64,000 nucleotides of DNA from an uncultured Gammaproteobacteria bacterium (GCA_964537315.1 CAZIAP010000001.1:23975-87974); one strand, 5' to 3'. Counted from the first letter of the stretch, positions 15,696 to 51,555 are shown. Notes: generated by a model from the letters alone, not told the origin. Made by a program: numbers and translations.

Positions 15696-15755
15696 AGAAA
15701 TTTAAATTTCCTACTTACTTATAAATCGTAGGTTAAAGCGTGCTACAATGTCAAT

Positions 15756-16403: not shown

Positions 16404-16431
16404 ATTACCCTATTGACAACCGTTTTAAGAT

Positions 16432-17037
16432 ATGAGTAATATATTTTATAACATGAAATACTCACTGCCCGTTATAACAAATCTTTCAGAATTTAAATCT
16501 TATTTCTCCGGTAAAAAAGGATTTACACTAGTCGAGCTTCTAGTAGTAATTGCAGTACTTGGAGTACTAGCAGCAGGAGTTCTAATTGCAATTAATCCAA
16601 TTGAGCAGCTTAGAAGAGGCCGAGATAGTGGGCGAAAAACCTCTGTAGCTGAGCTTGGTCGTTCTCTAACTGCATATTACACTTCACAGACAACCTACCC
16701 AACACAAGGCACTACATGGATAACTTTACTTAGAAGCTCAGGAGAGATAAAAATTGAAGCGCAAAATCCAAACTACTCTAATGGGTATACTCCAGCGTGT
16801 GGAGGAGCCGCAGCTTTGCAAAATGGTTATTGCTACGCAACAGGAAACATTTCAAATAACCCTGAGGCTCTAGTCTTTGTCCAAGCTGAGTCAGAGTCTG
16901 ACAGAATTAAAGCTGGATGTACAACCAGTACAATGGCTGCATGGATAGTGTGGTCATCAGCTGCTGGAAAAACAGGATTAACTTGTACAGCAAATGCAAC
17001 CACTTATCCTCAACTCGGAATCTCTTCATTGAACTAA
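16432..17037 (+). CDS. Type IV pilin (candidate major pilin) with an unusually long leader
   Basis: 'KKG|FTLVELLVVIAVLGVLAAGVLIAINP' class III signal with Glu+5; leader at least 22 aa, with no in-frame start nearer the cleavage site. Confidence 0.7.
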   Translation: MSNIFYNMKYSLPVITNLSEFKSYFSGKKGFTLVELLVVIAVLGVLAAGVLIAINPIEQLRRGRDSGRKTSVAELGRSLTAYYTSQTTYPTQGTTWITLLRSSGEIKIEAQNPNYSNGYTPACGGAAALQNGYCYATGNISNNPEALVFVQAESESDRIKAGCTTSTMAAWIVWSSAAGKTGLTCTANATTYPQLGISSLN

Positions 17038-17069
17038 TTTTCTAGAAGCAATATAATTTTCTGTAAGGT

Positions 17070-17825
17070 ATGGAACTTTTTTTAGCATCCGTTATATTTA
17101 TATTTGGTTCAATTTTCGGAAGCTTCGTTAACGTACTAATTGATCGCGTTCCGCAAGGGAAATTTTTTGATAATAAGAGGTCGTACTGTGAATCTTGTAA
17201 AAAAAGCTTAAGCTGGTACGATTTAATCCCATTATTTTCGTATATTATTCTTCGTGGTAAGTGTAGAAGATGTAAAAGTAAGATACCTTTTAGAATTTTT
17301 GTAGTTGAGTTATTAACTGGTCTTGGGTTTGTTGCACTCTACTCGCTTATCTATCAATCACTTCCTCTAATTAGCTTTATTATGATTGTTCTAACATTTT
17401 GTTTACTTACGGCTATATTTTTTATAGATGTAAAGCACAGAATCATTCCTAATTCACTACTTATTGCGATTTTGTTATGCACTCTGTTCTATCACATATT
17501 TGCAGGACATGACTTAATACCATACATAATTACAGGCATAGTATCATTTTTAGTTTTTTTCTTATTATTTGCCGTAACAAAAGGCAAAGGAATGGGTTTT
17601 GGGGACGTGAAGTTTGCTTTTGTAATAGGTTTTTTGCTTGGTTTTCCGGCTTCATTAATTGCTTTTTATGCTGCCTTCTTGACAGGAGCTGCTATCTCTA
17701 TCATACTGATAATAGCAGGAAAGAAAAAAGCAAGAGGCAGTGTAATTGCGTTCGGTCCATTTTTAATAATCGGAATTTTAATTGCGACGCTATTTACAGA
17801 TGAAATTATTAAAAAATTTTTTTAA
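17070..17825 (+). CDS. pilD: Prepilin peptidase (A24 family)
   Basis: N-terminal CxxC...CxxC Zn motif 'CESCKK...CRRCKS', multi-TM, 'GMGFGDVKF' catalytic Asp region. Confidence 0.85.
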   Translation: MELFLASVIFIFGSIFGSFVNVLIDRVPQGKFFDNKRSYCESCKKSLSWYDLIPLFSYIILRGKCRRCKSKIPFRIFVVELLTGLGFVALYSLIYQSLPLISFIMIVLTFCLLTAIFFIDVKHRIIPNSLLIAILLCTLFYHIFAGHDLIPYIITGIVSFLVFFLLFAVTKGKGMGFGDVKFAFVIGFLLGFPASLIAFYAAFLTGAAISIILIIAGKKKARGSVIAFGPFLIIGILIATLFTDEIIKKFF

Positions 17826-18339
17826 CAAAAAGTTTTCTTTTGCTTCCTCCATAGCTTCACTACGAAGCAATCTCTCTAGTACTCATGGATTTACTTTAGT
17901 TGAATTGCTGGTTGTAATGGGAGTAATTGGTACTCTTGCAGCTGGTTTGGTAGTGGTGATAAACCCTGCTGCCATGGTAGGTAAAGCACGAGACGCACAG
18001 AGAAAAAGTGATTTTAATCAAATACAAAAAGCCTTGGAATTATATTATGATGATTATAGTGAGTATCCAGTCAATATGGATGATCTGACTACAGTTGGTA
18101 ATTATATGAAAACAATTCCTTCAGACCCTGTTCCGACGCGTTTTCAATATAGGTATGTTCAGATTTCAGGCGGACAGATGTATAGATTATATGCTCACTT
18201 AGAAAATGCAAGTGATCCTCAAGCGTGCTCACCTACAGGTGACTGTCCAAATGCGTCAGGAGTTTCAAATCCGAAATGTGGAGTTGGAGTAGCACAAACA
18301 TGTAACTACGGTGTAACCAGTCCGAATACATCACCATAA
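17800..18339 (+). CDS. Type IV pilin-like protein
   Basis: 'HG|FTLVELLVVMGVIGTLAAG'; start placed at MKLLKN within the track ORF. Confidence 0.65.
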   Translation: MKLLKNFFNKKFSFASSIASLRSNLSSTHGFTLVELLVVMGVIGTLAAGLVVVINPAAMVGKARDAQRKSDFNQIQKALELYYDDYSEYPVNMDDLTTVGNYMKTIPSDPVPTRFQYRYVQISGGQMYRLYAHLENASDPQACSPTGDCPNASGVSNPKCGVGVAQTCNYGVTSPNTSP

Positions 18340-18343
18340 TAAT

Positions 18344-18838
18344 ATGAAAAATTTAATAAATATAATAAGTAAGAAAAATAGTATCAACTTGTCGAGGGGA
18401 TTCACACTGATCGAATTGATTGTGGTAATCACTATAATAGGCATTCTTTCAAGCGTACTAGTGGCAAACTTTATGCAGGTTCGGGAAAAAACACGGGATT
18501 CCGTAAGAAAAAAAGATTTTGAGCAAATACGTTTAGCGCTTGAAACTTACAGGATTGATGTAGGGTCATATCCTGCTCACTCCAGTTCTTTTCTCCCCAA
18601 CTGCCCGGCGAGTGGATCGCTAAGAAATCCTACTAATACATCTGTTGTGTATATGGAACTAATTCCGTGTGATCCTAAAAGTAAAAATCAAAAATATACA
18701 TATAATAGAAGCTCAACATTGAGGTATACATTGTCTGTGTGTTTAGAAAACCCTAATGAGCAGCTAGGACCTACGATTAGGAGTGTAAGCACAAGTCAGT
18801 GTGCTAGTGGTAAACTGCTTGAAGTAACTAATCCATAA
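18344..18838 (+). CDS. Type IV pilin-like protein
   Basis: 'RG|FTLIELIVVITIIGILSSV'. Confidence 0.65.
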   Translation: MKNLINIISKKNSINLSRGFTLIELIVVITIIGILSSVLVANFMQVREKTRDSVRKKDFEQIRLALETYRIDVGSYPAHSSSFLPNCPASGSLRNPTNTSVVYMELIPCDPKSKNQKYTYNRSSTLRYTLSVCLENPNEQLGPTIRSVSTSQCASGKLLEVTNP

Positions 18839-18844
18839 ACATGC

Positions 18845-19387
18845 ATGCGCAATATCCTACGTTTACATATATTTTCTGCCGATGAAGGATTCTCTTTACT
18901 CGAATTAATGGTGGCAATAACCGCTTCTGCTCTAATTGCCGGAGGAGGTTTTTTTGCTTTTATACAGTATTCACGCTCGCAATCTCATTCACAGACTATC
19001 GAAAATATACGCTATGCATATACAGAAGCACGTAATAGCGCCATCTCAAATGTGAAAGTAGACAGGATTGGTTCTACTCCTACCAACTGTGGCACTCTGA
19101 TGGGTTATAGAGTAAATTTAAGTGCAACTTCATACGAAATTCAAATTGTATGTTTGAATAATACTGGTTCTCAGGTGGTAACTGGTAATCCAGTAAGTCT
19201 GCCTTCAGGTATAAGGTTGAGTGGAGCTAATCAATGTTCAGGTCTAGGTTACAGAGTAATTACAGGTAATGTAACAACTTTTTCTGGTTCGACTACTCTA
19301 CCCTGTACGTTCGAAGTACTGCATGACTCAGACAGTTCTTTAAGAAAAACTATAACAATTGAAAATGATGGAAATCTGACGATTTAA
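18845..19387 (+). CDS. Minor pilin-like protein
   Basis: 'DEG|FSLLELMVAITASALIAGG' prepilin-type N-terminus. Confidence 0.55.
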   Translation: MRNILRLHIFSADEGFSLLELMVAITASALIAGGGFFAFIQYSRSQSHSQTIENIRYAYTEARNSAISNVKVDRIGSTPTNCGTLMGYRVNLSATSYEIQIVCLNNTGSQVVTGNPVSLPSGIRLSGANQCSGLGYRVITGNVTTFSGSTTLPCTFEVLHDSDSSLRKTITIENDGNLTI

Positions 19388-19390
19388 TAT

Positions 19391-19900
19391 ATGAAAGAAT
19401 TATTAGTTAGCAAAAAAATGTCAACACAATCAGGATCTGCATTACTGGAGGCAATAATAGCTCTGGGAGCAGTTGTTATGGCAGTAGCCGGAATTGCTAT
19501 ATTAATGGTATCAAGCGCTAGCAACGCTGCATTTATCCAAAATCAAAATCAAGCAAACAAGTATGCGCAGGAGGGTATGGAATACTTAAAGAGTGTGAAG
19601 AATCAAAGTTACACAGATTTTCTGGATCTGTTTCCGGTTTCTGGTGTTGATTACTGTCAAAACGAGCAGTTCCAGAATGTAACTGCAGATAATAACTGCT
19701 CCGGTGCGAGAATTGAAGGAGGAAAATATGTCAGAACAGTAATGGTGAACCATGACTCTTCGAACTGCGAGAATGGCGCACATCAAGTAAGTGTACAAGT
19801 TTCATGGCAGAGCGGAAAATGCGATGTTAATGTAAATTCTTTTTGTCATAACACTTTATTAAGGACATGTTTTGTACGTCCGCCAAATTCAGAATTATGA
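19391..19900 (+). CDS. Minor pilin-like protein (PilV/FimT-like N-terminus)
   Basis: 'QSG|SALLEAIIALGAVVMAV' with Glu+5. Confidence 0.45.
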   Translation: MKELLVSKKMSTQSGSALLEAIIALGAVVMAVAGIAILMVSSASNAAFIQNQNQANKYAQEGMEYLKSVKNQSYTDFLDLFPVSGVDYCQNEQFQNVTADNNCSGARIEGGKYVRTVMVNHDSSNCENGAHQVSVQVSWQSGKCDVNVNSFCHNTLLRTCFVRPPNSEL

Positions 19901-20469
19901 AAAAAGCTAATGGATATACGCTCATAGAGCTATTAGTAGTATCAGGCATATTAGTGGCTGTATCGGGTATTGTAGGAGGAATTCTAGTTTCCACAATGCG
20001 CAGTTCAGAGGTTACACGTTCAACAACACAGATCGCACAGAACGGTAATTATGCGCTTTCGTCAATTAGCGAACTGATAAAGCACTCCCAAGATGTATCA
20101 GCAGTCTGGAACTCGAATAACAGTTATCCTACCAATTTTGCAGGATGTGCTGGAGAATCATCACCTGAGGGAGATTCTTTAGCATTGATGATGCCCGAAG
20201 GACAAGAAGTTCAGTTAACGTGCTCTCATTCATCAGGCAGAGTCGCGTCAACCAGCGGATCTATGACGTATTATCTTACTAACAGAGAGCTCGCAGTTGT
20301 ACAGGGAAGTTGTAAATTTGTGTGTAATCAAAATTCTGCTTTTTCACCTCCTAGGATCGAAGTAAAGTTCGAACTAGGTATACGTGATGGTACAACAAAC
20401 AACGTGCTTGACGGCAGTTCTAAAGTATTTCAAACTCAGATCAGTAGTAGAAATTATATTAACAAATAA
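19897..20469 (+). CDS. Type IV pilin-like protein
   Basis: 'ANG|YTLIELLVVSGILVAVSG'; start at MKKANG. Confidence 0.6.
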   Translation: MKKANGYTLIELLVVSGILVAVSGIVGGILVSTMRSSEVTRSTTQIAQNGNYALSSISELIKHSQDVSAVWNSNNSYPTNFAGCAGESSPEGDSLALMMPEGQEVQLTCSHSSGRVASTSGSMTYYLTNRELAVVQGSCKFVCNQNSAFSPPRIEVKFELGIRDGTTNNVLDGSSKVFQTQISSRNYINK

Positions 20470-20523
20470 ATGAGTACAATATTCTTGACATCCAAGCTAA
20501 AATAATTCTATGATTAAGATAAG

Positions 20524-21354
20524 ATGAAACACAAATCATCGCAGTCAGGTCAAATTTTATTAATAGTTGTATTAAGTATTGTAGTGGCTTTGACTGTTGG
20601 ACTGTCAGTCGCCTCCAGAACAATCTCAAATTTAAGAATTTCTAAACAAAATGAAGAATCACAGCGCGCATTTCAGGCGGCTGAAGCAGGGCTAGAACTT
20701 GCCACGCAGGCTTTAAGCCAGGGATCAAGTGGAAATCTAGCTAGTGGCTTAGATAATACTGCGACATACCAAGTAGAGGTACAATCAGAAGGAGGCAACG
20801 AGATTATTTTAAATGGAGAAAACCTTGTACAGCGTTCAGTAGGACTTGATGTCTGGATGAGTAATCATGATGATTATTCTTCTCCTTTCAGAGGGAGTGT
20901 GATATTGGGTTTTGGTTCTCCTGGTCAGGATTGTAGCTCAAGGAACAAAGATTACGCTCCTGCACTTGAAGTGTTATATATTTATGGAGATCCAAATGCT
21001 CCCCAATTTAGGCGTGATGTATACGATCCTTGTAGAAATATTTCAGGACGTATATCTAATGCTACGGGAGGATCGGCCGGAGCTACTACTATTGCGGGCA
21101 CGCAGTTTCCCTTTTCCATTAATTTAAACCTTTCTTCAGATCCAAGTAACATTTTGATAATGAAGGTGATTCCTATTTATAACTCGACTAAGCTTGGTAT
21201 ACGTAGAGTCAGCGGAAACAGGAATTTGCCTGCGCAGGGGTCAACAATTGTTTCTACTGGTCGTTCAGGAGATACAGTTAGAAAAATAACGTATTTCCAA
21301 TCCCATCCGCAAATTCCTAATGAATTATTCCCGTACGCAATAATCTCACAATGA
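20524..21354 (+). CDS. PilX-like pilus tip/assembly protein
   Basis: 'SQSGQILLIVVLSIVVALTVGL' PilX-type N-terminus lacking Glu+5. Confidence 0.45.
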   Translation: MKHKSSQSGQILLIVVLSIVVALTVGLSVASRTISNLRISKQNEESQRAFQAAEAGLELATQALSQGSSGNLASGLDNTATYQVEVQSEGGNEIILNGENLVQRSVGLDVWMSNHDDYSSPFRGSVILGFGSPGQDCSSRNKDYAPALEVLYIYGDPNAPQFRRDVYDPCRNISGRISNATGGSAGATTIAGTQFPFSINLNLSSDPSNILIMKVIPIYNSTKLGIRRVSGNRNLPAQGSTIVSTGRSGDTVRKITYFQSHPQIPNELFPYAIISQ

Positions 21355-22373
21355 ATAAACGCTTTGGGCTTGACATAGGATCCACTTCAATTAAGGTAGT
21401 TGCTTTAGAAAAGCAAAAAGACCAGTTTACGCTTAATGCCATTGGTTTTTCTCCTGTGGCTGTAAACAGCATACTCTCTGAGTCCCCTGTCGACCAGCAG
21501 ACACTGGCAGAGTCAGTTAAAAATATCCTTAACCAGGCAGGTATTAAGGAAAAAGAAGTGAATTTGGCCATACCTGAGAGCAGTGTCTATATCAAAATAA
21601 TTGAGATGCCTAATCTTTCTGAACAAGAGTTATCGGCCGCTCTCAGATGGGAGATGGAACAGTATATTCCTATGCCTATAGATCAAGTACGGACCGATTG
21701 GCAGGTTTTGAGACGTTCAGATGACAAGGAAAAAACAATGGATGTACTACTTGTCGCAGCTCCTATTGCTACAATTAATAAATACGAAACAGTGCTAGGA
21801 CTAGCTGATCTTACAGCAGAAAATGTAGAAACCGAAATTATTGCTGTACATCGTGCACTTCATCCATTGGTAGCGGGTATGTCGAGTGTTATAGTGCACC
21901 TTGGTGCAACTACTACCGATGTCGCGGTAGTCAAAGATGGGTTGTTAAATATGGTTTTTTCGATCGGTGTTGGTGGATTGGCTATCACAAGGGCGATATC
22001 GTTGGATTTAGGAATTGATGTAAAGCAAGCTGAAGAATACAAACGAGCGTATGGCTTGACTAGAGATACATTTGAAGGAAAAATCGGTAAATCACTCTAC
22101 CCCATTATGGAATCAATTGTAGGAGATATTAAAAAGGCAATGCTCTCATATAAACAAAAAAACGCAAATGATGAGATTAAACAAGTCGTTCTATCCGGTG
22201 GAAATGCTATGCTTCCTGGTTTGGACGTGTTTTTAACTAATACGCTTAATACTCAGGTCGTTTTAGGTAACTGTTGGGAGATCAATAACATTCAAAATGT
22301 ACCCGATCAAGTGAAGACGGACTTCAGTAGGTATAATGTAGTTGTAGGTTTAGCTCTTCGTGACTTTATTTAG
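21351..22373 (+). CDS. pilM: Type IV pilus assembly ATPase-fold protein PilM
   Basis: 'FGLDIGSTSIKVVAL' actin-like fold; overlaps the upstream stop by 4 nt. Confidence 0.8.
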   Translation: MNKRFGLDIGSTSIKVVALEKQKDQFTLNAIGFSPVAVNSILSESPVDQQTLAESVKNILNQAGIKEKEVNLAIPESSVYIKIIEMPNLSEQELSAALRWEMEQYIPMPIDQVRTDWQVLRRSDDKEKTMDVLLVAAPIATINKYETVLGLADLTAENVETEIIAVHRALHPLVAGMSSVIVHLGATTTDVAVVKDGLLNMVFSIGVGGLAITRAISLDLGIDVKQAEEYKRAYGLTRDTFEGKIGKSLYPIMESIVGDIKKAMLSYKQKNANDEIKQVVLSGGNAMLPGLDVFLTNTLNTQVVLGNCWEINNIQNVPDQVKTDFSRYNVVVGLALRDFI

Positions 22374-22929
22374 ATACAGTATGAAATCTACAATCAATCT
22401 TGCCCAGCGTACCAAAACAGGTTCTCAAAAGAAGCATAAGTATACAGTTTATATATATGGTTTATTTGTTGCAGTAATTGCCGTGGCGATGGGTGTAATG
22501 GTCATAAACATTATTTTAAAATCAGAGTTTAGTTCGCTAGAAACAACCGAAAGCCAACTCTTAACACAGATAAACAACCAAGCAGATAAAAAGCTTAAAA
22601 TGCTTATTATATCTGAGCGATATAAAAATATTAAATCACTCCTCGCTTCTCGCGGAAGCTTAGATCAACGACTTGCTTCTCTTATACGTCAATTTCCATC
22701 GACTGTTCGCGTATCAGGAATGAATGTGAAAGATAATGTCATTATATTGACAGTCGAGTCTTCTAATTTGCTTGCTCTTAACACAATATTAGAAAATGAT
22801 CTTCCTGAGTACTTGAAAAGTAATGATATCGGGGTACAGTTGGCTGATGTGAGTTCATTTAAGGCAGCTGAGGGCGTGTATGCGGCAGAGCTTCGTTTTG
22901 AGTTTGCTGGAGGATTAAATAATGAATAA
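22360..22929 (+). CDS. pilN: PilN-like bitopic membrane protein
   Basis: Single N-terminal TM, size and position after pilM. Confidence 0.5.
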   Translation: MTLFRYSMKSTINLAQRTKTGSQKKHKYTVYIYGLFVAVIAVAMGVMVINIILKSEFSSLETTESQLLTQINNQADKKLKMLIISERYKNIKSLLASRGSLDQRLASLIRQFPSTVRVSGMNVKDNVIILTVESSNLLALNTILENDLPEYLKSNDIGVQLADVSSFKAAEGVYAAELRFEFAGGLNNE

Positions 22930-23587
22930 AGATTACGTACTATTTGGTAAAAAATTTACTGCAGAACAAATGCTTGCAGTTTCACTTGTGCTACTCGGTT
23001 TTTTCGTAATTTTGTTTGTTATACTCCCTCAGATTGATAGCATAGGTCTACAAAGAGAACAGAATCAAGCTAAAAAAGCTGAGGTGAATGAGCTTCAAAA
23101 TTCGCTAAACGTAATGCAGTCAATAAGTTCTGAGCAGGTAGAAGCAGATCTGAAGCTTGCAAGCAGTGCGCTTCCTACAAATAAAGACATTATTTCCATA
23201 TTCTCCGCGATCTCTGAACTCGCAAGCTCATCGGATGTACAACTGAGAGGCTTTACAATAAAAGTGGGAGAACTGTATACAAAAGCTACTGGAGAAAGTA
23301 ATCAGGTGGATAATACAACTTCGGTTACTGGAGTTCCCAGCATGGATGTTACAATAACAGTAAGCACAGTTGATGATAAAAACTTAGTCGCGTTTACACA
23401 GCAACTTTACAAAAATTTTCCGATCGCGCGTATTAATACCCTGAATTCTCAAAAAAACGACGGGATGATAGAGCTGTCATTTTATTATCGACCATATGAC
23501 TTAAAACAAATTGAAGGAGTTAACCTTGTCTCGCCTTATAACACACAATATTCAGATCTCATACAGCAACTAAGTAGCTCAAAGTAG
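22922..23587 (+). CDS. pilO: PilO-like bitopic membrane protein
   Basis: Single TM and coiled-coil region; synteny. Confidence 0.45.
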   Translation: MNKDYVLFGKKFTAEQMLAVSLVLLGFFVILFVILPQIDSIGLQREQNQAKKAEVNELQNSLNVMQSISSEQVEADLKLASSALPTNKDIISIFSAISELASSSDVQLRGFTIKVGELYTKATGESNQVDNTTSVTGVPSMDVTITVSTVDDKNLVAFTQQLYKNFPIARINTLNSQKNDGMIELSFYYRPYDLKQIEGVNLVSPYNTQYSDLIQQLSSSK

Positions 23588-24872: not shown

Positions 24873-25328
24873 TTATATGCGTTGGAGTTCAATAACTGCA
24901 CCTTGACTGGTTTTCGTATTAACTAACAAATAAAAGGTATATTCAGTAAGTGTAGCTGTTGCTCTAGATTTTGGTTGAACTGTCACTTCTTGATAATCTT
25001 TTGAGCCTCTTTTTCCAAATCTTAAGCTTGCGGGACTATTTGTTTCATTTATGATTAATAATTTTCCGCTGGGTGTCTCATCTGAGGAAAAAACTATTAG
25101 CTCAAGTGGTTCTAATCCTGCATCATTTAGCAATATATATCCTACGTACGAGTCTGCGTCTTCTGAAGTATCATTTGTATTTTGAGTAATGGAATCTCCT
25201 TCTATGGCTGCTTGATCTGAACCTTTTGTTAAGTAATAGGTACCTACTATGATTAGTACACATATTAGTAAAACTGAAATAATGATGTAAATTTTTTTCA
25301 TAAGCTTAAGTTTACGGAGCAACTTCAT
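24873..25328 (-). CDS. Small N-terminally anchored extracellular protein (partner of the upstream giant protein)
   Basis: N-terminal TM 'IYIIISVLLICVLIIVGTYYL' plus a ~120-aa beta-rich domain; overlaps the upstream giant gene by 17 nt. Confidence 0.4.
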   Translation of the reverse strand: MKLLRKLKLMKKIYIIISVLLICVLIIVGTYYLTKGSDQAAIEGDSITQNTNDTSEDADSYVGYILLNDAGLEPLELIVFSSDETPSGKLLIINETNSPASLRFGKRGSKDYQEVTVQPKSRATATLTEYTFYLLVNTKTSQGAVIELQRI

Positions 25329-27762
25329 TCCACATGCTGTTTGATACTTTGTAAAAGTCTGTAAGTGCAGTAATAAAGCTTAGTCTAGATTTTACGAATA
25401 GCGATGGATTTGTAGCATCTGCCGTACATAATGTTCTGTCATTGATTAGTCTGCCACCAGCGCTCTCTACTCCGAATGGATTATCAGCATTTGCAACCAG
25501 TGTTCCTTCAATATTTAATCTCCTGTCAGCTGTAGCGGGGCAGTTTGCGATACTCGGTATTAGTATATCGTTTTCTGCCGTTATAATTGCTTGAAGGTTT
25601 GGGTTTGTGCTTGATGGATTAACCTCACCTACATTAGTTCCAATGGTGACATCGCCTTTGGCTGCGAAAATCAGTAGGGACTTGCCAGTTGCTACCCTTA
25701 CATCGCTGTTTATCGTGATATTTCCTTTAGCCAAGATGATAATTTTATGATCATTATTTATCGAGCGGTTCGCAGGGCCAGATGGGTTAAATGTTAGATC
25801 ACCATCTACATAATAGAAAGTTTGGTTATTCAAGCTACTGAGGCTTGCAATAAAAGTACAGTTACCACTGGGTGAACAGCCAGGCAATGGAGTTAAGTTT
25901 ACAGCCGCGCTCTGTTCTTGACGTTTTTTATAGAAACTGTATGATGCGTTTCCTTCTCGGTTTGAAGCACCTACTTGATCGTATTCATTGTCTACCCTCC
26001 AAATGTCTGAAGCGGATCCAAATAGCGAACTTCCTGTGGTGCTATAAAATACTGAGGCTGTACCACTATTAATGGAAGTTGTAGGACGCTCTCCTGCGGG
26101 TACTCGGTTTTGTATAGTTTGCTGTCTTACACTGCCTATTTCAGTCTGGAACCAGGGTTGTGTAGTCTTAAGGATGATGGTGATGTCATCAGGAGGATTT
26201 GATATATCAAATGGTCCATAAGTTGGGTTTGATAAGTCTACCTGTGTTTGTACTCCATTTTGCGTAATTATCGCACACTGAACTACCCTGCTTCCTATGT
26301 TTGATAAGGTAAGATGATACTCATTGCCTGCAGGACCTGTGACTGAGATCGAGTATCTGCCATTTGCGCCTGTAGGGTTTGATGGCCAGTTATCTGTGTT
26401 TCTAAACACTGATGCGACTGCACCCGGAACCCCGACTAAACCTGTTAAGTTACACTCGCCTGTGGGACTATCTCCTATAGTCCCTGTTACCGTATTAGTA
26501 ATATCCGTGTTACCTGGCGCATTTAGGATAAGCGGATGGTTGTATGTTCTATTTCCAGTAACGGATATTTCCGGTGAATAGGTATCAGAAGTGTAGGTTG
26601 TTGGAATTTCTGCATATCTGATTCTATATCTTCCGGTTGTTAAATTACTGAATATTCGTCTACCATTATTAATTCCTGAAGTTGCTGTATACCCGTTAGT
26701 GACCGCAGTCCAGTTGCTTCCAGATCTCCTTTCCAGGTAGACTCGGGTACGGGGACCCGGATCTTCTGCTGAATCAAACTGTCCATTACCATTGAAATCA
26801 ACAATAAGTATTCCCAGAATACTAATGTCATCTTGAGTTTGCCATTCTCCGTCTCCATCACGGTCTACAAATACCCCAGCGTTTAATGTATGAGTTGAAG
26901 GTGCTGTTGTCGGTGTGTTTACTCTTCGAGTAGGTGTAGGTGTATTAGGGACTCTACAGCGCATTAAACCTCCTCCAGGAGGAGGAAGACATCTGCTACA
27001 ACCGTCAGCAGCATTCGCGCATTGTGAATCGAACGAGCAGGTAGCATTGCATCTATTTACTGAACCGGGTGCACTTGTAGGAGTGCGTGTTGGAAGAGTA
27101 CCGCCTCCACCACCGCCACCACCACAGTCCGTAGGACAAGAAGTTGGAGTTTCTCCTGCTCCTGTTTCACATGCTCCATTTCCACAAACTGCTCCTCCAC
27201 CAGAACCTGTTCTACATGTACCATTTTGACAAGTCATGGTCCCACAGCATTGTGTATTGCTTGTACAACTACCACCCGATGATCTGCAGCACTGATTACT
27301 AACGCAGCTTAGTTGCTGTCCACTACAGCACGGCGCTGCTCCTGCACCACTCGGAGTGTTACACGATTGTCCAACATTTCTACAGGATTCTCCCCCTCCT
27401 CCGCTACCAGATCCTTCACATCTATTAGTACTGAGATTACAGGTTAGATTACTACAGCAGTTTCCGATACCTGCACCACAAGACTGCCCAGTTGACCTGC
27501 AAGAAGTATCAGGCGTCGGGGTAGCGTTACTTCTCGGGACGCAGCATATATTATTAGCCTGAAGATTTGGACAGAGCTCATTATTTCCACCTTGTTGTGT
27601 TTGATAACCTGCAGGACAAGGTGATGACGTCGTACAGTATCCTCCTCTTTGTGAACAAGTCTGCGCTGATACACTTTTAAAAATTCCGCTATCGGTGCCG
27701 ATAATCAAAAACAGCAGAAAAATGATTATCTGCCCCGTCAAAAAGTATATAAATTTTTTCAT
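25312..27762 (-). CDS. Giant secreted Cys-rich surface (adhesin-like) protein, paralog 1
   Basis: Signal peptide; ~230 aa with tandem knottin-like spacings (e.g. 'SCRSTGQSCGAGIGNCCSNLTCNLSTNRC'), 'GGGGGGGG' run, PT-rich linkers, SdrD/Cna-B-like 'GVFVDRDGDGEWQ' module, ~400-aa C-terminal domain shared with 28754..31255. Confidence 0.6.
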   Translation of the reverse strand: MKKFIYFLTGQIIIFLLFLIIGTDSGIFKSVSAQTCSQRGGYCTTSSPCPAGYQTQQGGNNELCPNLQANNICCVPRSNATPTPDTSCRSTGQSCGAGIGNCCSNLTCNLSTNRCEGSGSGGGGESCRNVGQSCNTPSGAGAAPCCSGQQLSCVSNQCCRSSGGSCTSNTQCCGTMTCQNGTCRTGSGGGAVCGNGACETGAGETPTSCPTDCGGGGGGGGTLPTRTPTSAPGSVNRCNATCSFDSQCANAADGCSRCLPPPGGGLMRCRVPNTPTPTRRVNTPTTAPSTHTLNAGVFVDRDGDGEWQTQDDISILGILIVDFNGNGQFDSAEDPGPRTRVYLERRSGSNWTAVTNGYTATSGINNGRRIFSNLTTGRYRIRYAEIPTTYTSDTYSPEISVTGNRTYNHPLILNAPGNTDITNTVTGTIGDSPTGECNLTGLVGVPGAVASVFRNTDNWPSNPTGANGRYSISVTGPAGNEYHLTLSNIGSRVVQCAIITQNGVQTQVDLSNPTYGPFDISNPPDDITIILKTTQPWFQTEIGSVRQQTIQNRVPAGERPTTSINSGTASVFYSTTGSSLFGSASDIWRVDNEYDQVGASNREGNASYSFYKKRQEQSAAVNLTPLPGCSPSGNCTFIASLSSLNNQTFYYVDGDLTFNPSGPANRSINNDHKIIILAKGNITINSDVRVATGKSLLIFAAKGDVTIGTNVGEVNPSSTNPNLQAIITAENDILIPSIANCPATADRRLNIEGTLVANADNPFGVESAGGRLINDRTLCTADATNPSLFVKSRLSFITALTDFYKVSNSMWNEVAP

Positions 27763-27766: not shown

Positions 27767-28216
27767 TTAAAAAACTACCAGCGTCATCATTTGATCTGAT
27801 CCTTCAACTTGTAGGACATAATTGCCTGCATAAGGAAGATAAATTTCTTCAAACTTATTGTACTCTAGTGTAAATTGATGAGGCAGCCCTGCACCCTCGG
27901 GTTGCTGAGTAGTTTTAAACGTTATCGGGTCTGAGTCAATATTCAGCACAGTAACGTGAACAACCTCGTCGCCTGCTCTTTTAAAAACTATCTCATTTCG
28001 CTCTAGTCTCCCGTTTTCATACAGTACCAGCCCATGAGTGTTCAAGTCTGCGTGTGCTTCTTGCAATATTTGAGTTACTCTTTGAGGTCCACTATTAAGG
28101 TCAGGAGGTAGTTGGGATGATGTAGAGTTATTTCGAATATAAACAATGCCAATAACTAATACTAAACATAATGCAATAAGTGAGGCGGTGATTAGTATGA
28201 TATTTTTCTGCTTCAT
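27767..28216 (-). CDS. Small N-terminally anchored extracellular protein
   Basis: N-terminal TM 'IILITASLIALCLVLVIGIVYI' plus ~120-aa domain; stop 4 nt before paralog-1 start. Confidence 0.4.
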   Translation of the reverse strand: MKQKNIILITASLIALCLVLVIGIVYIRNNSTSSQLPPDLNSGPQRVTQILQEAHADLNTHGLVLYENGRLERNEIVFKRAGDEVVHVTVLNIDSDPITFKTTQQPEGAGLPHQFTLEYNKFEEIYLPYAGNYVLQVEGSDQMMTLVVF

Positions 28217-28312: not shown

Positions 28313-28753
28313 TTATTGGTTACGTACGTGTATTGTGACAGCTTGATTTGTTTGTGTGTTTCTCAACTCATAAGTATTGTATTCATGGAGTGTCATTATA
28401 ATGTGTCCATGTTTGGGAATAGACATCGGCGGATAGAGCTCAGTCTTATCATGAGATTTGTTAACAGAAACTGAAACCGCTTCGTCCGATGAGTTTGCTA
28501 TTACTAAAGTTGCAAATGGGATTTCATCGTTTGATGATATATTAACTTCTTTAGATTCAAATCCCTCGTTTGAAATCAATATACTTCCAGTAGATTTTGG
28601 TACGACAGATTTCTCTGTTTGTTGCGTAACATTTTTGTTTACTTGTTGAGTAATTTGTGTAAATGGCAGTTTGGTAATTACAAATCCACTAATAACTAGC
28701 ACTGCGGACAGGATTAATAAACCTAGAATTAATATTTTTTTATTCTTATACAT
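28313..28753 (-). CDS. Small N-terminally anchored extracellular protein
   Basis: N-terminal TM 'ILILGLLILSAVLVISGFVI'; start abuts the paralog-2 stop. Confidence 0.4.
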   Translation of the reverse strand: MYKNKKILILGLLILSAVLVISGFVITKLPFTQITQQVNKNVTQQTEKSVVPKSTGSILISNEGFESKEVNISSNDEIPFATLVIANSSDEAVSVSVNKSHDKTELYPPMSIPKHGHIIMTLHEYNTYELRNTQTNQAVTIHVRNQ

Positions 28754-31255
28754 TTATGGTTCAACCTCATTCCAAATGCTTGTTGATACTTTATAAAAGT
28801 CAGTGAGTGAAGTAATAAAGCTTAGTCTAGATTTTACATATAGTGATGGATTGTCTGAGTCTGCTGAGCACAAAGTCCTATTATTTATCAATTTACCACC
28901 TGAACTTTCTACGCCGAATGGATTGTCTGAGTTGGCGACCAGGGTTCCTTCAATATTTAGCCTGCGGTCAGGATTTGCCGGACAGTCTGCGGTTCCTTGA
29001 ATCGTAATATTATCTTCGGCGGTTATAATGGCCTGAATATTAGGTGCGGAACTTTCCGGGTTAAGTTGTCCTACGTCGTTACCAATAATCACGTTATTTT
29101 TTGCAGCAAGTATCAGTAGTGATTTTCCATCACGTACGCGCGCATCACGGTTGATAGTAAGAGTTCCGTTTACAAGGATTACTACTCTTGCGTTAGAATC
29201 AAGCAATGGATCGCTAGGATTAAAGATTAGATCTCCATCTACATGATACAGTACTTGGTGATCAAGTTCGCTTAAAGGACGACTAAAAGTGCATCTTCCT
29301 GATGTAGGACAATGTGGAAGGTTGACCAACTGAGGACCTGTCTGCTGGGAACGTTTAATATAAAAGCTGTATGAAGCATTTCCTTCTCGATTATTGGAAC
29401 CTGTCTGATCATACTCATTATCAACTTTCCAGAGATTTGATGCAGTTCCGAGCATTGATCTGCCCTGCGTACTATAAAACACAGAGGCAGTTCTCCCTGA
29501 CGTTGAGGTAGGGCTTTTGCCTTCTGGTACTTTATTATTAATTCTTTGCTGCTTAACGCTGCCTATATCTGTCATAAACCAAGGCTGTCCAATACTTAGA
29601 ACGAAAGTAACCTCTGTATCATCAGGGAAATTTATAGAGTGTGAAGGACTGGTAGTGTCGATCTGTGTGCCATTTCCAAGAATAATACACTGAACTTGTA
29701 AATTACCGAAATTAGAGATATTTATAAAGTGAGAGTTGTTTGGATCGTCTGTTACTGTGATTGAGTAATTCCCGTTTGTGTCAGTAGCATCTGTCCAGGT
29801 TTGAACTGGTGATTCAGTATTGTTAATTGACACTAATACATTAGCCAGAGGTGTTGCCCCTGTTAGGCTACATATTCCATACTGGTTGCTTACAACATTT
29901 CCTCCAACATTTGAGGATATGTCATTTTCTGAGTTTGTGTCGACGGTAAGAGGTAAATAACGAGAGTAATTATTTGAAATTTGTACTGGAGGATAAGCAT
30001 ATGAAGTCGGACTGTAGGTTGACGGTATTTCTGAAAACTCAAGGCTGTATGTGCCTGTGGCAATTCCGTTAAAATTTATTTTACCGTTTGCCGCAGTGTA
30101 CCCATTTCCGACTTGAGTCCCGTTATTACGTCTGAGAATTACACGGGTACGAGGACCGGATTCTTCAGCCAGATCGTACTGTCCATTACCATTATAGTCG
30201 ACCAGTAATACCCCTCCAAGTATTAAGTCATTTTGTTCCTGCCAGATACCATTCATATCACGATCTACAAATACTCCCGCTGTTACTGTATGAGATCCGG
30301 TAGGAGGCGTTATTGGGGTTGGGGTAGATGTTGGATTCGACTGTCTATTAAGTGGAAAATATATCTGCGTAATGTAAGATCCGTTGTTTTGTATTTGTGG
30401 TATGTTAACCGTTTTAGGATTACTGGAAAGGTCTACATAGCCGGGAGGACTTAAACGCGATATGTTATATGATCCGTGAGTAGGTACATCTTGTCTAAAG
30501 AATCCTGCAGAGTTAGTCACTATTGTTACTCCATAAGAGTTTGGTCCAGTGATCCTAATCTGAGCTCCCTGTATACGCTCGTCTGGAGCGCTCAGCGTGG
30601 TATCACCATCTTCATCTACAAACACATACCCGGTTATAGTGTAGGTTTGTATTGGTGGTTGTGCTGAAGTTGGTGTTGGTGAATTTGTTGGTACTACTGG
30701 TGGAGTTGTTGGTGTAGGTGTATTTGGTCTGGCTGTGGGTGTTCTGGTTGGAGTTCGGGTAGGTGTAGGGGTTGCTGGACGACGTATTCCAAAATCTCTA
30801 GTATCAACATCTATGAAACCAGTTCCCCCTGTAGTTTCTACTGAATAAGAAGTAGCCGTAGTTGCTACATAGCCAGATGGCACAGAGATTGAAACGTTCC
30901 TTGTTCCACCTGTAAGTCCTTCAAAGCTATAATATCCTTTGCTATCAGTAGTTTTGGTACCTTTTCCTGTTAAAGATATTGTGACACTTGAAACCCCTTG
31001 CTCACCGGAATCCCAAGTTCCATTACTATTTGAATCAATAAATACCGTTCCTCTTATCACACTACTAGTTGAATTGGCGCATTTGTTATTCGAACAATTA
31101 GCATGGCAGCATTCTTGATCAGAGCTACAGGTTTGATTTAGCCATTTACATACTTGAGCATTAACGTTCGATGTTAGGTTAAAAAATGACAAACCCGCTA
31201 CTATAATAGTGAATAAAACTATTTGACGAGCTACAAATTGTAGAGCTTTTCTCAT
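28754..31255 (-). CDS. Giant secreted surface (adhesin-like) protein, paralog 2
   Basis: Signal peptide; one knottin-spaced module 'CKWLNQTCSSDQECCHANCSNNKC' (C-x6-C-x5-CC-x3-C-x4-C); three SdrD-B/Cna-B-like modules ('GTVFIDSNSNGTWDSGEQ', 'GYVFVDEDGDTT', 'GVFVDRDMNGIWQ'); PT linkers; C-terminal ~400 aa near-identical to paralog 1. Confidence 0.6.
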   Translation of the reverse strand: MRKALQFVARQIVLFTIIVAGLSFFNLTSNVNAQVCKWLNQTCSSDQECCHANCSNNKCANSTSSVIRGTVFIDSNSNGTWDSGEQGVSSVTISLTGKGTKTTDSKGYYSFEGLTGGTRNVSISVPSGYVATTATSYSVETTGGTGFIDVDTRDFGIRRPATPTPTRTPTRTPTARPNTPTPTTPPVVPTNSPTPTSAQPPIQTYTITGYVFVDEDGDTTLSAPDERIQGAQIRITGPNSYGVTIVTNSAGFFRQDVPTHGSYNISRLSPPGYVDLSSNPKTVNIPQIQNNGSYITQIYFPLNRQSNPTSTPTPITPPTGSHTVTAGVFVDRDMNGIWQEQNDLILGGVLLVDYNGNGQYDLAEESGPRTRVILRRNNGTQVGNGYTAANGKINFNGIATGTYSLEFSEIPSTYSPTSYAYPPVQISNNYSRYLPLTVDTNSENDISSNVGGNVVSNQYGICSLTGATPLANVLVSINNTESPVQTWTDATDTNGNYSITVTDDPNNSHFINISNFGNLQVQCIILGNGTQIDTTSPSHSINFPDDTEVTFVLSIGQPWFMTDIGSVKQQRINNKVPEGKSPTSTSGRTASVFYSTQGRSMLGTASNLWKVDNEYDQTGSNNREGNASYSFYIKRSQQTGPQLVNLPHCPTSGRCTFSRPLSELDHQVLYHVDGDLIFNPSDPLLDSNARVVILVNGTLTINRDARVRDGKSLLILAAKNNVIIGNDVGQLNPESSAPNIQAIITAEDNITIQGTADCPANPDRRLNIEGTLVANSDNPFGVESSGGKLINNRTLCSADSDNPSLYVKSRLSFITSLTDFYKVSTSIWNEVEP

Positions 31256-31378: not shown

Positions 31379-33904
31379 TTAATTAATTTGCTTAGTGAAA
31401 AGTGAAATTGGCTTATCAGCAATTTTGAGTGATTGATCTAATTGGTAGTCAGTTTGCAAACTTTGTACAATGATACGCATATAGTTTATCGAACCAAAGT
31501 ATGCTTCCATGTCATCTCTGAAAGCTGGATCTACACTATCTAAAAATGCCGATGATAAGGGTCCATATGATGGGTTAATTTCTTTATCACGTAAGTGGAA
31601 ATTAGAGGTGTATCTTTTAACTTTTCTGTCAAAAAAATCTACTGGCGCATAACCATCCCAATCTTGGTGCTCAGCACCAAGACCGTATTCATCATAGTAT
31701 CCGTATGCTTTATATTCAGGACGTGTGTATTTAAAGTTATCATCAATATGATTAATAAATGACCTACGTGCTAAGTCAACGTTATGAGAGAACTCTTCTC
31801 CGACATCAATGTTTCCCATTTTAGCAAACAGCTTAGCCTCTCCGAGCAGTCCGAGTGAGGTGGCTAGATAATGGTCACTGATGATTCCGTGATTATAAAA
31901 TTCAATATCACCGTTTGAGTCTAATATTACTGTACGAAGACCATCATCTTCTGTTGTGCCTAATGCAAAAGTAGCCTTTGCGTATTTATGAGCAGATGCT
32001 ATCCATTGTTCCCGATTAGGATGATTCGATAGCAAGCTTGCTGCTCCTATAAGCTGTGCTGCTATACCTGCGTTCGTTTCTCCAAAGCTGTTCTCACGAA
32101 TATTATCCTCAGAATTTCCTTTAGGTGGTTGCGAAGCGTAATTATCAGCCATTGCAGTAAGTCTGTTGAGTATTTCATCAACCATGTTAGGCTCTCGTTT
32201 CTGAAGCTCATTTCCATGGAGCTTCAATGCAAGGATAAATTCGAGCATGGGAAATACCTCAGTTGAGGTGTTATCAGGCAGAGAATTACCATTTAAGCTA
32301 ATTAATTCCTTGGAATACTGCCAGGACTTTTTTATAGTCTCATTAGCTTTATCAAACTCACTATTTACTCCGTAAATAATTCCTGCGTTGGTAAGATATG
32401 CGCCCATCCACCATCGCTTATCTTTTATCTCTTGCGTGTAATGTTCTGGAAGAGAGTTAACAAAATTTTGATTGAAAAAAAGTAGGTCTTTATTCTGTAG
32501 AACTTCTTTTAATACATTATTCATATGTTTATTACTTTCTGTAAGTAATAGATTCTCGTGGTTGTTATCTTGAGGCTCAGAATCGTATCTCCAAGTGTGA
32601 TATTGCTTACCAACGTTTCCTGCTTCTACCTGCCAGTCAGATGGGTTAGTAGGATCATAAGTTAGACATCTTCTCTCAAAAACCTGCATTAAGATTTTTT
32701 TAGGAGTCCCTCCAACATTTGCCTCTACCCAATACGGCTCAGTTATCGGTCTACCAATCTCTTTCAAAGGATCGTGATCACGATTATTTATATATTCTTC
32801 GAATGGACCAGCAATATTATGACCAGTAATTTCGTCATAGCTAGAAATAGAAACTTCGTGAGAAACATTTTCTACCTGTGATACTTCTCCTGCTCGGTTG
32901 ATATGCGAAGTAACCTTTGTTCCTTCATGAATTTTTTCTACAGGATCCAATTTGTTATGTAGTGATGCGTACGTGACCCCGTGTGAGTCATCAAGATCGC
33001 CGACTATGTTTATTTCTGCTGGTTTTCGATCTTCAAATTCATTATTTCCTGTTTGGATCTTTCCTTTTATCATTTCCAACGGAAGTAGTCCATTAGTGAC
33101 ATACCAATTACTGTCTGGGTTTCTATCGGGGTTATTGATTTCCATTCTGGACTTATCAAAGTAAACAACCTGCCGTTTACCATTTGGAGAGTCTGAATAT
33201 GGCTCCTCAATAATTTTAGTTAGAGCTTTAGGTCCCCATGTCCATGGTTTTCGTACTGAACCAGTAGCTATGGGTCCATCTGACAATTTCCAAACTCTAT
33301 CAAAGTAAAAGTTTCCCGTTGGTCCGTCTATTCCTTCAAGATTTCTGGTCAACTCGTCTGGTTTTACCATGTAAGTGGCACTTCCATGAGCTTCAGCAGT
33401 TTCAGGGAGAGAGCGCAGTGCAAGCGCTCCTGTTACACCTATAGCTCCTTGTAAAAATCTTCTACGAGACATGGTTGAAGAAAAATTGCTGGTTGAATCA
33501 GGTGATTCTGACTCAATTGATCCTAAAGTCTTTTCTTGTAAGTTATCAGTAGATGTGTTTTTTCTTACTTCCTCAAATTCTTCTAAGTAATGGATTCTTC
33601 GTCTAGAACTAGATAATACAGGGTCAGTACTCAATAATTTTTCAGGTTGTTCCGGAACTGACTGCTCTATGCTCTCTACCATGTCTTCAGGTGACAAGTT
33701 TGTTGAAAAATCATTGGTTGGAATACTAAAATCTTGAGTTTCTTCCTGTCCTCTCTGAGAATGACCGAGCATGTGCGCGATTTTGCCGAAAAGTGATTTT
33801 CTCTGCTCTTGAATCGGTTTTAATGAGGGTTCATGTGATTGATTTGCTTGCTCGGTACGTGAGGTATTATTAATTTCTGAATGATTTGGACTTTCATTTT
33901 CCAT
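31379..33904 (-). CDS. Large secreted protein with a twin-arginine signal (function unknown); the true start may be at 33472
   Basis: 'MSRRRFLQGAIGVTGALALRSLPETAEAHG' Tat motif sits 145 aa into the track ORF; the upstream 144 aa are acidic and low-complexity. Confidence 0.5.
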   Translation of the reverse strand: MENESPNHSEINNTSRTEQANQSHEPSLKPIQEQRKSLFGKIAHMLGHSQRGQEETQDFSIPTNDFSTNLSPEDMVESIEQSVPEQPEKLLSTDPVLSSSRRRIHYLEEFEEVRKNTSTDNLQEKTLGSIESESPDSTSNFSSTMSRRRFLQGAIGVTGALALRSLPETAEAHGSATYMVKPDELTRNLEGIDGPTGNFYFDRVWKLSDGPIATGSVRKPWTWGPKALTKIIEEPYSDSPNGKRQVVYFDKSRMEINNPDRNPDSNWYVTNGLLPLEMIKGKIQTGNNEFEDRKPAEINIVGDLDDSHGVTYASLHNKLDPVEKIHEGTKVTSHINRAGEVSQVENVSHEVSISSYDEITGHNIAGPFEEYINNRDHDPLKEIGRPITEPYWVEANVGGTPKKILMQVFERRCLTYDPTNPSDWQVEAGNVGKQYHTWRYDSEPQDNNHENLLLTESNKHMNNVLKEVLQNKDLLFFNQNFVNSLPEHYTQEIKDKRWWMGAYLTNAGIIYGVNSEFDKANETIKKSWQYSKELISLNGNSLPDNTSTEVFPMLEFILALKLHGNELQKREPNMVDEILNRLTAMADNYASQPPKGNSEDNIRENSFGETNAGIAAQLIGAASLLSNHPNREQWIASAHKYAKATFALGTTEDDGLRTVILDSNGDIEFYNHGIISDHYLATSLGLLGEAKLFAKMGNIDVGEEFSHNVDLARRSFINHIDDNFKYTRPEYKAYGYYDEYGLGAEHQDWDGYAPVDFFDRKVKRYTSNFHLRDKEINPSYGPLSSAFLDSVDPAFRDDMEAYFGSINYMRIIVQSLQTDYQLDQSLKIADKPISLFTKQIN

Positions 33905-51222: not shown

Positions 51223-51504
51223 CTAGGGAATGTAGACAAGCTCAGGGAACAAAATATTGTTTCGACTAGCCTCCTCAATTGCTAAAAGGTGGCATACTTG
51301 GCAAGTATTACTACCTTTGATTACTACCTTTGAACATCGTGGACATATGGTAACAGTGCACCCGCATCCTTCACATCTTGTAACAATCTTGTGATCATCT
51401 GGATGCTTACATACCTTTGCCGATTCCTTCATCCTTGCTTCCTTTCTGCTATCTCTCAGATTGAGAGAAACAGCCTTGAACATTTCAAGACTCTTACCTC
51501 TCAA
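51223..51504 (-). CDS. Small Cys-rich double zinc-ribbon protein
   Basis: 'VCKH...TRCEGCGC...ICPRCSKV...TCQVCH': four Cys pairs. Confidence 0.4.
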   Translation of the reverse strand: MRGKSLEMFKAVSLNLRDSRKEARMKESAKVCKHPDDHKIVTRCEGCGCTVTICPRCSKVVIKGSNTCQVCHLLAIEEASRNNILFPELVYIP

Positions 51505-51527
51505 CCTGTATGTAAATGTGCAACTAA

Positions 51528-51555
51528 AACAAAAAAACCTCCCATGTGGGAGGTA
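51528..51555 (-). terminator. Intrinsic terminator (copy 2 of the identical hairpin)
   Basis: Same 'aaaaaaacctcccatgtgggaggta' as copy 1. Confidence 0.55.

Follow-up and report, generated by a model that had tools for sequence, protein, structure and literature searches.

Knottins have a well-known fold, are prized as ultra-stable binding scaffolds and are known in the great majority of cases from eukaryotes, as toxins, inhibitors and defence peptides; tandem knottins exist in the double-knot toxins of spiders. The present analysis concerns a stretch of 64,000 nucleotides catalogued under an uncultured Gammaproteobacteria bacterium (GCA_964537315.1 CAZIAP010000001.1:23975-87974; its full length is called the window below), in which the gene p1 encodes a putative surface protein of 816 amino acids (aa) with three knottin-like modules in its N-terminal head. 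What is new here is that tandem knottin-type domains head a conserved surface-protein family of the Candidate Phyla Radiation (CPR), where they stand alongside other types of mini-domain and show signs of being shuffled as cassettes.

The closest described systems are the inhibitor-cystine-knot (ICK) peptides, among them spider toxins (cyriotoxin-1a, Pn3a, hanatoxin), omega-conotoxins and squash inhibitors, with which the p1 modules share the six-Cys arrangement C-x6-C-x5/6-CC-x3/4-C-x4-6-C and a predicted fold with a C-terminal hairpin. The double-knot toxins (DkTx / Tau-theraphotoxin-Hs1a, Hi1a), which are themselves among the matches obtained, likewise carry two ICK units in tandem. In contrast to free eukaryotic peptides of 3-4 kDa, the p1 modules are N-terminal domains of an 816-aa bacterial surface protein, no aromatic residue occurs in their polar loops, and they reach no Pfam toxin threshold; homology with the eukaryotic peptides and convergence on them cannot be told apart. 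As regards bacteria, the KNOTTIN database lists bacterial knottins as predictions without structures and gives no detail on them (PMC5753296); these entries resemble the p1 modules in being predicted, bacterial and devoid of an experimental structure. In the literature searched, that database paper was the only one to speak of a bacterial knottin (PMC5753296), and nothing relevant was found on ICK domains in prokaryotes or on their horizontal transfer.

Other described systems resemble p1 in architecture or in part of its sequence. In the Peribacteria, another CPR group, large Cys-rich extracellular proteins have been proposed to play a role in attachment (Anantharaman et al. 2016, PMC4736985). 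They share with p1 a CPR lineage, signal peptides, a high Cys content on a Cys-poor background and strain-level variation, but their mean length is 1,655 aa, they were likened to the Cys-rich repeats of Myxococcus, and neither knottin modules nor the p1 C-terminal family were described for them (PMC4736985). The MSCRAMM Sdr adhesins have in common with p1 and its paralog p2 the beta-sandwich stalk of SdrD_B type and the logic of an N-terminal ligand-binding region mounted on a repetitive stalk, whereas p1 and p2 have no LPXTG motif, A-domain or SD repeats and combine a DUF7305-like base with a head of disulfide-rich mini-domains. Classification of p1 as an LPXTG-anchored MSCRAMM was rejected because the sorting signal is absent. 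Finally, Dickkopf_N (PF04706) is the nearest Pfam model for several of the modules. Dickkopf proteins are animal Wnt antagonists that possess a second domain of colipase fold; this domain is absent from p1, and the p1 modules match only the last ~25 of the 51 positions of the Dickkopf_N model.

The p1 product begins with a putative signal peptide, followed by a Cys-rich head, a Pro/Thr-rich (PT) linker, an SdrD_B-like beta-sandwich region and a conserved C-terminal domain ending in WNEVAP. The stretch 26980-27680, for which the initial annotation had proposed tandem knottin modules in a giant protein, falls within this open reading frame (ORF). The head (aa 35-270, 236 residues) contains 34 Cys, all of them in aa 36-269, which amounts to 14.4%, against 1.1% in the remainder of p1 and 0.35% in 21 other long ORFs of the window. 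Five residue types (G, C, S, T, N) make up 64% of the head; aromatic residues are scarce (no W, two Y, one F) and do not occur within M2-M4. The Cys sort into six blocks, M1-M6, each with an even number (4 or 6). Only three of these six modules (M2, M3 and M4) have the general framework C-x6-C-x5-10-CC-x4-6-C-x4-6-C, so that the count of four or five knottin modules given earlier comes down to three, with a first loop of x6 and not x5. The proteins concerned, at 816 and 833 aa, are hardly giant; the second of them, p2, does carry exactly one such module, as had been noted. The gene and the knottin-like modules are located as follows:

25312..27762, minus strand: whole p1 gene, 816 aa, from the ORF list and translation
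27418..27501, minus strand: M2, aa 88-115 (C88 to C115), C-x6-C-x6-CC-x4-C-x6-C, knottin-like by Cys framework and profile
27289..27384, minus strand: M3, aa 127-158, C-x6-C-x10-CC-x6-C-x4-C, knottin-like by Cys framework and profile, loop 2 being long; kept in the ortholog P0003
27214..27288, minus strand: M4, aa 159-183, C-x6-C-x5-CC-x4-C-x4-C, knottin-like by AlphaFold2 and Foldseek; very similar to the repeats of protein P0007 (CTSSTQCCGTMFC)
28754..31255, minus strand: paralog p2, 833 aa, comprising a single knottin-like module, PT-linked domains of SdrD_B type and a C-terminal domain of p1 type
31079..31150, minus strand: single knottin-like module of p2, CKWLNQTCSSDQECCHANCSNNKC, aa 36-59, directly after the signal peptide, by Cys framework

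The ICK order of Cys (C-C-CC-C-C) and the ICK loop lengths are found in M2, M3, M4 and the p2 module. When the head was shuffled 20,000 times with its composition preserved, three or more framework matches never occurred and two occurred 21 times. A profile made from ten module instances and searched against all PDB chain sequences (E <= 10) gave 39 matches, virtually all of which are ICK peptides: the best were cyriotoxin-1a (E 6.9e-5) and bleogen pB1 (3.2e-4), and the others include omega-conotoxins, hainantoxins, huwentoxin and the double-knot toxin Hs1a. The modules of p1, p2, P0003, P0007 and the family locus L013 were also scanned singly against Pfam, and their weak matches fall nearly all in ICK or Cys-rich toxin-type families (Conotoxin_I2, Dickkopf_N, Toxin_12, Toxin_23, Toxin_29). 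Specifically, the best match of M2 is Toxin_12 (15.5 bits against a cut-off of 21), and Dickkopf_N, with a gathering threshold of 25 bits, is matched by M4 at 17.3 bits and by the p2 module at 14.8 bits, both below it. The p2 module additionally shows weak matches to Toxin_29 and UPF0506, likewise sub-threshold, and the L013 module passes UPF0506 (27.0 against 23.2 bits), being the only module above the cut-off among Toxin_12, Conotoxin_I2, Toxin_29 and UPF0506.

The predicted structure of M4 points in the same direction. Given a nine-row module alignment, AlphaFold2 produced a model with a mean predicted local distance difference test (pLDDT) score of 86.6, and of ~92 over the 25-residue module. 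DSSP assigned strands to residues 18-21 and 24-27 of this model, which contain Cys20 and Cys25 and correspond to the C-terminal beta-hairpin with Cys V and VI. A Foldseek comparison with the PDB returned 40 matches, nearly all of them knottins, with a root-mean-square deviation (rmsd) of 1.0-3 Å and a query-normalised TM-score that is mostly 0.6-0.78. The M4 model superimposes on Pn3a at 1.0 Å over 28 columns (TM 0.72) and on the N-domain of Dkk4 at 1.1 Å; jingzhaotoxin-XI was matched with a TM-score of 0.78, and conotoxin GXIA, hanatoxin and squash trypsin inhibitors are also among the matches. Foldseek comparison of a low-confidence model of the whole head led to knottins again, including double-knot toxins. 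Collectively, the profile matches to PDB sequences, the M4 model and the Foldseek superpositions agree with the ICK type of framework that the initial annotation had suggested, and a knottin-like nature of M2-M4 and of the p2 module is well supported, although not proven.

The same annotation had likened the modules to hevein-like glycan binders. Hevein domains (CBM18) share with the modules a CC-containing framework and a knottin-like core; they have 8 Cys, together with conserved aromatic and Ser residues that serve N-acetylglucosamine stacking and chitin binding. By comparison, each of M2-M4 has 6 Cys; Trp, Tyr, Phe and His are absent from all three, and their net charge is +1 to +2. Chitin_bind_1 (hevein/CBM18) had no match in the p1 head or its modules, even at E <= 1 to 10. 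Because this profile match is lacking and M2-M4 are free of aromatic residues, the hevein/CBM18 analogy is unsupported, and the chitin-binder reading was rejected.

The head is conserved at the level of its Cys and beyond. An identical p1 product (P0001, for which a later start was called) is encoded on contigs of two separate SRA runs. An ortholog, P0003, is found at a syntenic locus from a third run (L018); its head is 61% identical to that of p1, with 27 of the 27 aligned Cys kept and a ratio of nonsynonymous to synonymous substitution rates (dN/dS) of ~0.24, and its C-terminal part is similarly conserved (57% identity). P0003 lacks exactly one six-Cys module of p1, namely M2, and the p2 ortholog at the same locus has an M5-type module in place of the knottin-like one. 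The head is thus under purifying selection within the lineage, and modules turn over between lineages. At the DNA level no tandem repeat was found in the head except for a run of Gly codons, which argues that the modules are old, diverged duplications rather than the outcome of recent expansion or of faulty assembly. The tandem Cys modules noted at the N-terminus of p1 are therefore real, given their number of Cys, the shuffling result, the Cys retention in the ortholog and their presence in two sequencing runs. As a separate observation, the p1 ortholog at L018 (4362-6727) is split into ORFs of 311 and 421 aa by a frameshift in its SdrD_B-like region, which may be either an assembly error or the mark of a pseudogene. 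The GC content rises locally to 44%, compared with ~38%; a foreign origin as the cause of this rise was considered and rejected, as the codons for Gly, Cys, Ala and Pro explain it better.

Outside the p1 family, few cases of the module were found. HMMER, with the head as query over 1.84 billion representative proteins, returned 18 matches in all, in which the ICK part is covered only in p1 itself, in its ortholog and in P0007. The latter (L015, 3130-3534) is a secreted protein of 134 aa that consists of three near-identical C-x6-C-x5-CC-x4-C-x4-C repeats (CTSSTQCCGTMFC) and nothing else, and it passes the Dickkopf_N gathering threshold (31.9 against 25 bits). Its gene has YkuD, DAO, dCache-guanylate cyclase, LysR and GT9 neighbours, which suggest that the bacterium is diderm and does not belong to the CPR. 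A further case, found by scanning metagenomes for the pattern [TS][QD]CCG[TM]M[TF], lies on a high-GC contig (L019, 42-2048), where a lipoprotein-like protein of 668 aa with 100 Cys (15%) is almost wholly a long tandem array of knottin-like and related modules. The claim that such tandem arrays are rare in bacteria is borne out by these searches, and the module appears, as judged from the sequences, to be a rare but recurrent bacterial extracellular repeat that occurs in at least three very different backgrounds; this rarity is to be read as a lower bound on the spread of the module, since sensitivity is low for 25 residues.

The remaining parts of p1 comprise three modules of other types, the linkers, and the stalk and base on which the head is mounted:

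27661..27762, minus strand: signal-peptide-like N-terminus, aa 1-34, MKKFIYFLTGQIIIFLLFLIIG...SVSA/Q, Sec-like, read off the translation, with a putative cleavage site at the slash
27541..27657, minus strand: M1, aa 36-74, C-x6-C-x5-C-x14-C-x8-CC, not of the knottin framework; kept in P0003
27124..27186, minus strand: M5, aa 193-213, CGNGACETGAGETPTSCPTDC, a 4-Cys C-x4-C-x10-C-x3-C repeat (CGNGxCExGE..CPxDC)
27100..27123, minus strand: Gly8 run, aa 214-221, a putative flexible linker read off the translation; G6 in the ortholog P0003
26956..27051, minus strand: M6, aa 238-269, C-x3-C-x5-C-x6-C-x2-C-x10-C; 69% identical to the ortholog M6
26503..26895, minus strand: SdrD_B / prealbumin-like beta-sandwich stalk, about aa 290-420; Pfam SdrD_B 20.5 bits in p1, sub-threshold
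25315..26160, minus strand: conserved C-terminal domain, about aa 535-816 (~290 aa), ending W[NQ]EV[AE]P, family-defining

The p2 N-terminus is laid out as that of p1 and ends in NVNA/Q. Between the modules of p1, linkers of low complexity alternate with a direct junction: M1 and M2 are separated by a PT-rich linker (aa 75-87, PRSNATPTPDTS), M2 and M3 by a Gly/Ser-rich one (aa 116-126, EGSGSGGGGES) and M4 and M5 by another (aa 184-192, RTGSGGGAV), and M3 directly abuts M4 (C158-C159) with no linker. Further PT-rich stretches occupy aa 222-237 and 270-289. The Gly/Ser linkers, the Gly8 run and the PT linkers are all present as first described.

Among the modules of other types, M5 is the most widespread. 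Approximately 14 of the 18 matches of the exhaustive HMMER head search cover essentially only the M5 segment, and repeats of this type (CGNGxCExGEtxxxCPxDC) occur in varied extracellular proteins (P0004-P0006, P0008-P0019), often in tandem and in up to 11 stretches. One of these proteins, P0006, which is unrelated to p1, combines M5 with G9 and thus has the same unit of repeat and poly-Gly as p1. The M5 repeat has no Pfam or NCBIfam model. The Cys order of M1 (GYC...CP...CCV) resembles that of beta-defensins, and avian beta-defensin 11 (6qes) was the third Foldseek match of the low-confidence whole-head model, over 40 columns at an rmsd of 2.1 Å and E 1.4, for an aligned part of the query that is not reported. 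A beta-defensin-like fold would, as far as we know, be uncommon among bacteria. In the whole-head model, M6 came out with the highest confidence (pLDDT 72-78); it has a spacing like that of the potato carboxypeptidase inhibitor (PCI); the sole Pfam match for M6, CarbpepA_inh at E 0.15, was obtained on the ortholog copy. Profiles of M1 and M6 gave chance-level matches only against PDB sequences and Pfam, and the likenesses of M1 to beta-defensins and of M6 to carboxypeptidase inhibitors serve as leads only.

The stalk and base of p1 define a protein family. Residues 290-816 of p1 and 321-833 of p2 are 52% identical. SdrD_B scores 95.2 bits in p2, in three stretches that are separated by PT linkers and homologous to the p1 region, and the family profile matches SdrD among PDB sequences at E 3e-5; p2 also shows similarity to MSCRAMM SdrC/SdrD. 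For the C-terminal domain no relative was found among PDB sequences. DUF7305 (gathering threshold 27 bits) recurs at 15-23 bits, always sub-threshold, in both p1 and p2 and in two of four further members that were scanned, and is not mentioned in the literature searched. With the C-terminal alignment as query, a search that covered each GTDB species by one genome identified 12 loci (tblastn E 8e-28 to 4e-14), which are labelled as Levyibacteriota or Levybacteria (5), 'uncultured Gammaproteobacteria' (4), 'Patescibacteria group' (2) and an unclassified 'bacterium' (1); the protein P0002 also matches the family, at E 1e-17. Every complete member has the same plan of signal peptide, Cys-rich head, PT/poly-Gly linkers, beta-sandwich domains and conserved C-terminal domain. 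The Cys patterns of the heads are mutually unrelated, except that L013 carries GGGGDCLGEGEVCWLDGQCCSGDCNWFICTT, with the framework found in p2. These sequences define an uncatalogued CPR protein family with swappable Cys-rich heads, found mainly in Levyibacteriota and other Patescibacteria. The source of p1 is likely a Patescibacteria (CPR) bacterium, probably one near Levyibacteriota.

In the window, p1 and p2 are interleaved with genes for small transmembrane (TM) proteins:

24873..25328, minus strand: small TM-anchored protein of 151 aa, one of a paralog trio, whose start overlaps the end of p1
27767-28216 and 28313-28753, minus strand: two further small TM paralogs, interleaved with p1 and p2

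The three paralogs, of ~150 aa each, combine an N-terminal TM anchor with a beta-rich ectodomain and match no Pfam family. Their genes abut p1 and p2, overlap them or lie a few bases away, the five genes being translationally coupled, and the same interleaving is seen at L018; the small TM proteins may anchor the large ones or be their partners. Additionally, a full type IV pilus cluster at 13920-23587 ends ~1.7 kb from p1 and includes a PilB-type (T2SSE) ATPase, a prepilin peptidase, several pilins, a PilX_N protein and PilM, with a weaker similarity to PilO. At L006 (6296-8041) and L007 (2106-5439), pilin genes with G/FTLIELL leaders lie directly 3' of the family gene. In three loci independent of one another, family genes are thus neighbours of type IV pilus genes, and a pilus-associated role of the family is possible. 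Scans for promoters and terminators gave results at chance level.

Other features of the window were recorded in passing. An ORF of 841 aa just upstream of p2 (31379-33904, minus strand) has no Pfam domain and contains a twin-arginine-like motif, SRRRFLQGAIGVTGALAL, at aa 145-163; given the distance of this motif from the annotated start, the true start may lie downstream, in which case the product would be exported by twin-arginine translocation. A small ORF at 51226-51591 (minus strand) with four CxxC motifs (CFSC, CEGC, CPRC, CQVC) has the look of a zinc ribbon and is the only other Cys-dense frame of the window that resembles a real gene. The window also holds gyrA/gyrB, four tRNA genes within ~480 bases at 58116-58593 (plus strand) and three more tRNAs at 49238, 53573 and 56165.

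We lean towards a reading of p1 as a surface adhesin whose head would form a disulfide-stapled modular binding tip, as its sequence and models suggest. CPR bacteria are episymbionts, and this lifestyle, the conserved base and stalk, the variable disulfide-rich head and the attachment role proposed for Cys-rich proteins of another CPR group together point to an adhesin-like function. The C-terminal domain and the SdrD_B-like domains would form the base and stalk, and the N-terminal ~235 aa, presumably distal, would make up a head like 'beads on a string', in which six mini-domains fold independently; each contains an even number of Cys, which are presumably paired in internal disulfides. M2-M4 would adopt the ICK fold, a knot that yields very small scaffolds stable to proteases and heat, with polar, aromatic-free surface loops presenting the binding residues. 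Several modules in a string, joined by flexible Gly/Ser, Gly8 and Pro/Thr linkers, could then give a multivalent, extended tip that contacts the surface of a partner or host cell or another extracellular target, and its specificity would evolve as modules are gained, lost and swapped. A binding head had already been put forward in the initial annotation; placed distally, it fits a family in which Cys-rich heads vary and the C-terminal domain is conserved.

Several observations weigh against the adhesin reading or the fold on which it draws. No p1 module reaches a Pfam gathering threshold, and the p1 head as a whole has no Pfam match; M2-M4 are for this reason assigned to no Pfam family and are called knottin-like in the structural sense only. 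The Foldseek E values are non-significant throughout (>= 0.8, and >= 1.8 for the M4 model), because the domain has only ~25 residues, and AlphaFold2, given the nine-row M4 alignment, may just be recognising the Cys pattern. Modelling of the whole head from a two-sequence alignment was poor (mean pLDDT 50, with M2, M3 and M5 below 50), and the disulfide connectivity of M2-M4 (I-IV, II-V, III-VI) is implied by superposition alone and not proven. As to binding, M2-M4 lack aromatic and charged residues that would form an obvious binding surface, and no ligand is indicated. Many Patescibacteria live in anoxic settings, where extracellular disulfides are less certain, and no disulfide-forming enzyme (DsbA/VKOR-like ORF) was found within the window. 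Lastly, p1 and p2 show no anchor, whether an LPXTG motif, a C-terminal TM segment or a hydrophobic tail, so that retention at the surface and the orientation of the head are assumptions.

A bolder, rather unlikely reading would make genuine cystine-knot mini-domains native building blocks of bacterial surface proteins, belonging to a shuffled disulfide-rich toolbox, perhaps together with a beta-defensin-like M1 and a carboxypeptidase-inhibitor-like M6, with which an uncultivated episymbiotic lineage would recognise or manipulate its host cell; elsewhere, folds of this kind are met almost exclusively in toxins and defence peptides of eukaryotes. If this were true, the folds concerned would lie deep in bacteria or represent a striking convergence, and knottin scaffolds that are naturally tandem and ready for display would be at hand.

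That the head has no specific ligand, and is a rigid, degradation-resistant and glycosylatable extension or coat projecting or shielding a functional C-terminal part, is unlikely. Its low complexity (64% G, C, S, T and N), its many N-x-S/T and PT stretches, the absence of aromatic residues from M2-M4 and the difference in module number between orthologs would all suit such an inert spacer. However, the non-Cys positions of the head are constrained too, to a degree (61% identity, dN/dS 0.24) comparable with the 57% identity of the C-terminal domain, and the modules are of specific types that recur in unrelated proteins.

Somewhat less probable again is a polyprotein precursor, whose modules would be cut apart at the linkers and freed as stable toxins, channel blockers or antimicrobials against the host bacterium or competitors. 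The nearest matches in sequence and structure are indeed toxins, P0007, small and secreted, consists of nothing but three such modules, the linkers offer flexible, exposed stretches, and there is a parallel with the multi-knottin precursors and double-knot toxins of animals. Yet in p1 the modules form one chain with a large, conserved stalk and C-terminal domain that the whole family has in common, the C158-C159 junction leaves no linker to cut between M3 and M4, and no dibasic or other recognisable processing sites occur between modules. M2-M4, with no aromatic residue and a charge of +1 to +2, are also devoid of the hydrophobic patch and basic ring of gating-modifier toxins.

There is a slim chance that the head is instead an array of protease inhibitors that shields the episymbiont or its pili, after the manner of squash trypsin inhibitors and PCI. 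Squash inhibitors are among the structural matches of M4, and M6 has the PCI-like spacing and, in its ortholog copy, the CarbpepA_inh match at E 0.15; these matches are, however, non-significant, neither a canonical reactive-site loop nor a C-terminal tail of PCI type is evident, and the other heads of the family consist of completely different Cys-rich modules, which fits variable recognition better. Metal-binding Cys clusters (metallothionein-like or Zn/Fe-binding, without disulfide bonds), the option named at the outset as refuting the knottin assignment, are barely tenable, for although Cys content is very high, M5 with its 4-Cys C-x4-C...C-x3-C could in principle chelate and the habitat is probably anoxic, the signal peptide makes p1 an extracellular protein, the modules contain no His, no metal-binding family in Pfam or NCBIfam matches them, and the framework, the profile matches and the confident M4 model all favour the ICK fold.

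The protein p1 would provide a concrete and conserved case of tandem knottin-type domains at the head of a bacterial surface protein, and a more interesting one if both the knot and an activity in binding or toxicity could be shown. The mechanisms by which CPR episymbionts recognise their hosts are still described as largely unknown (PMC12206443). In this regard, the p1 head would give a testable handle on how these ultra-small episymbionts recognise their partners.

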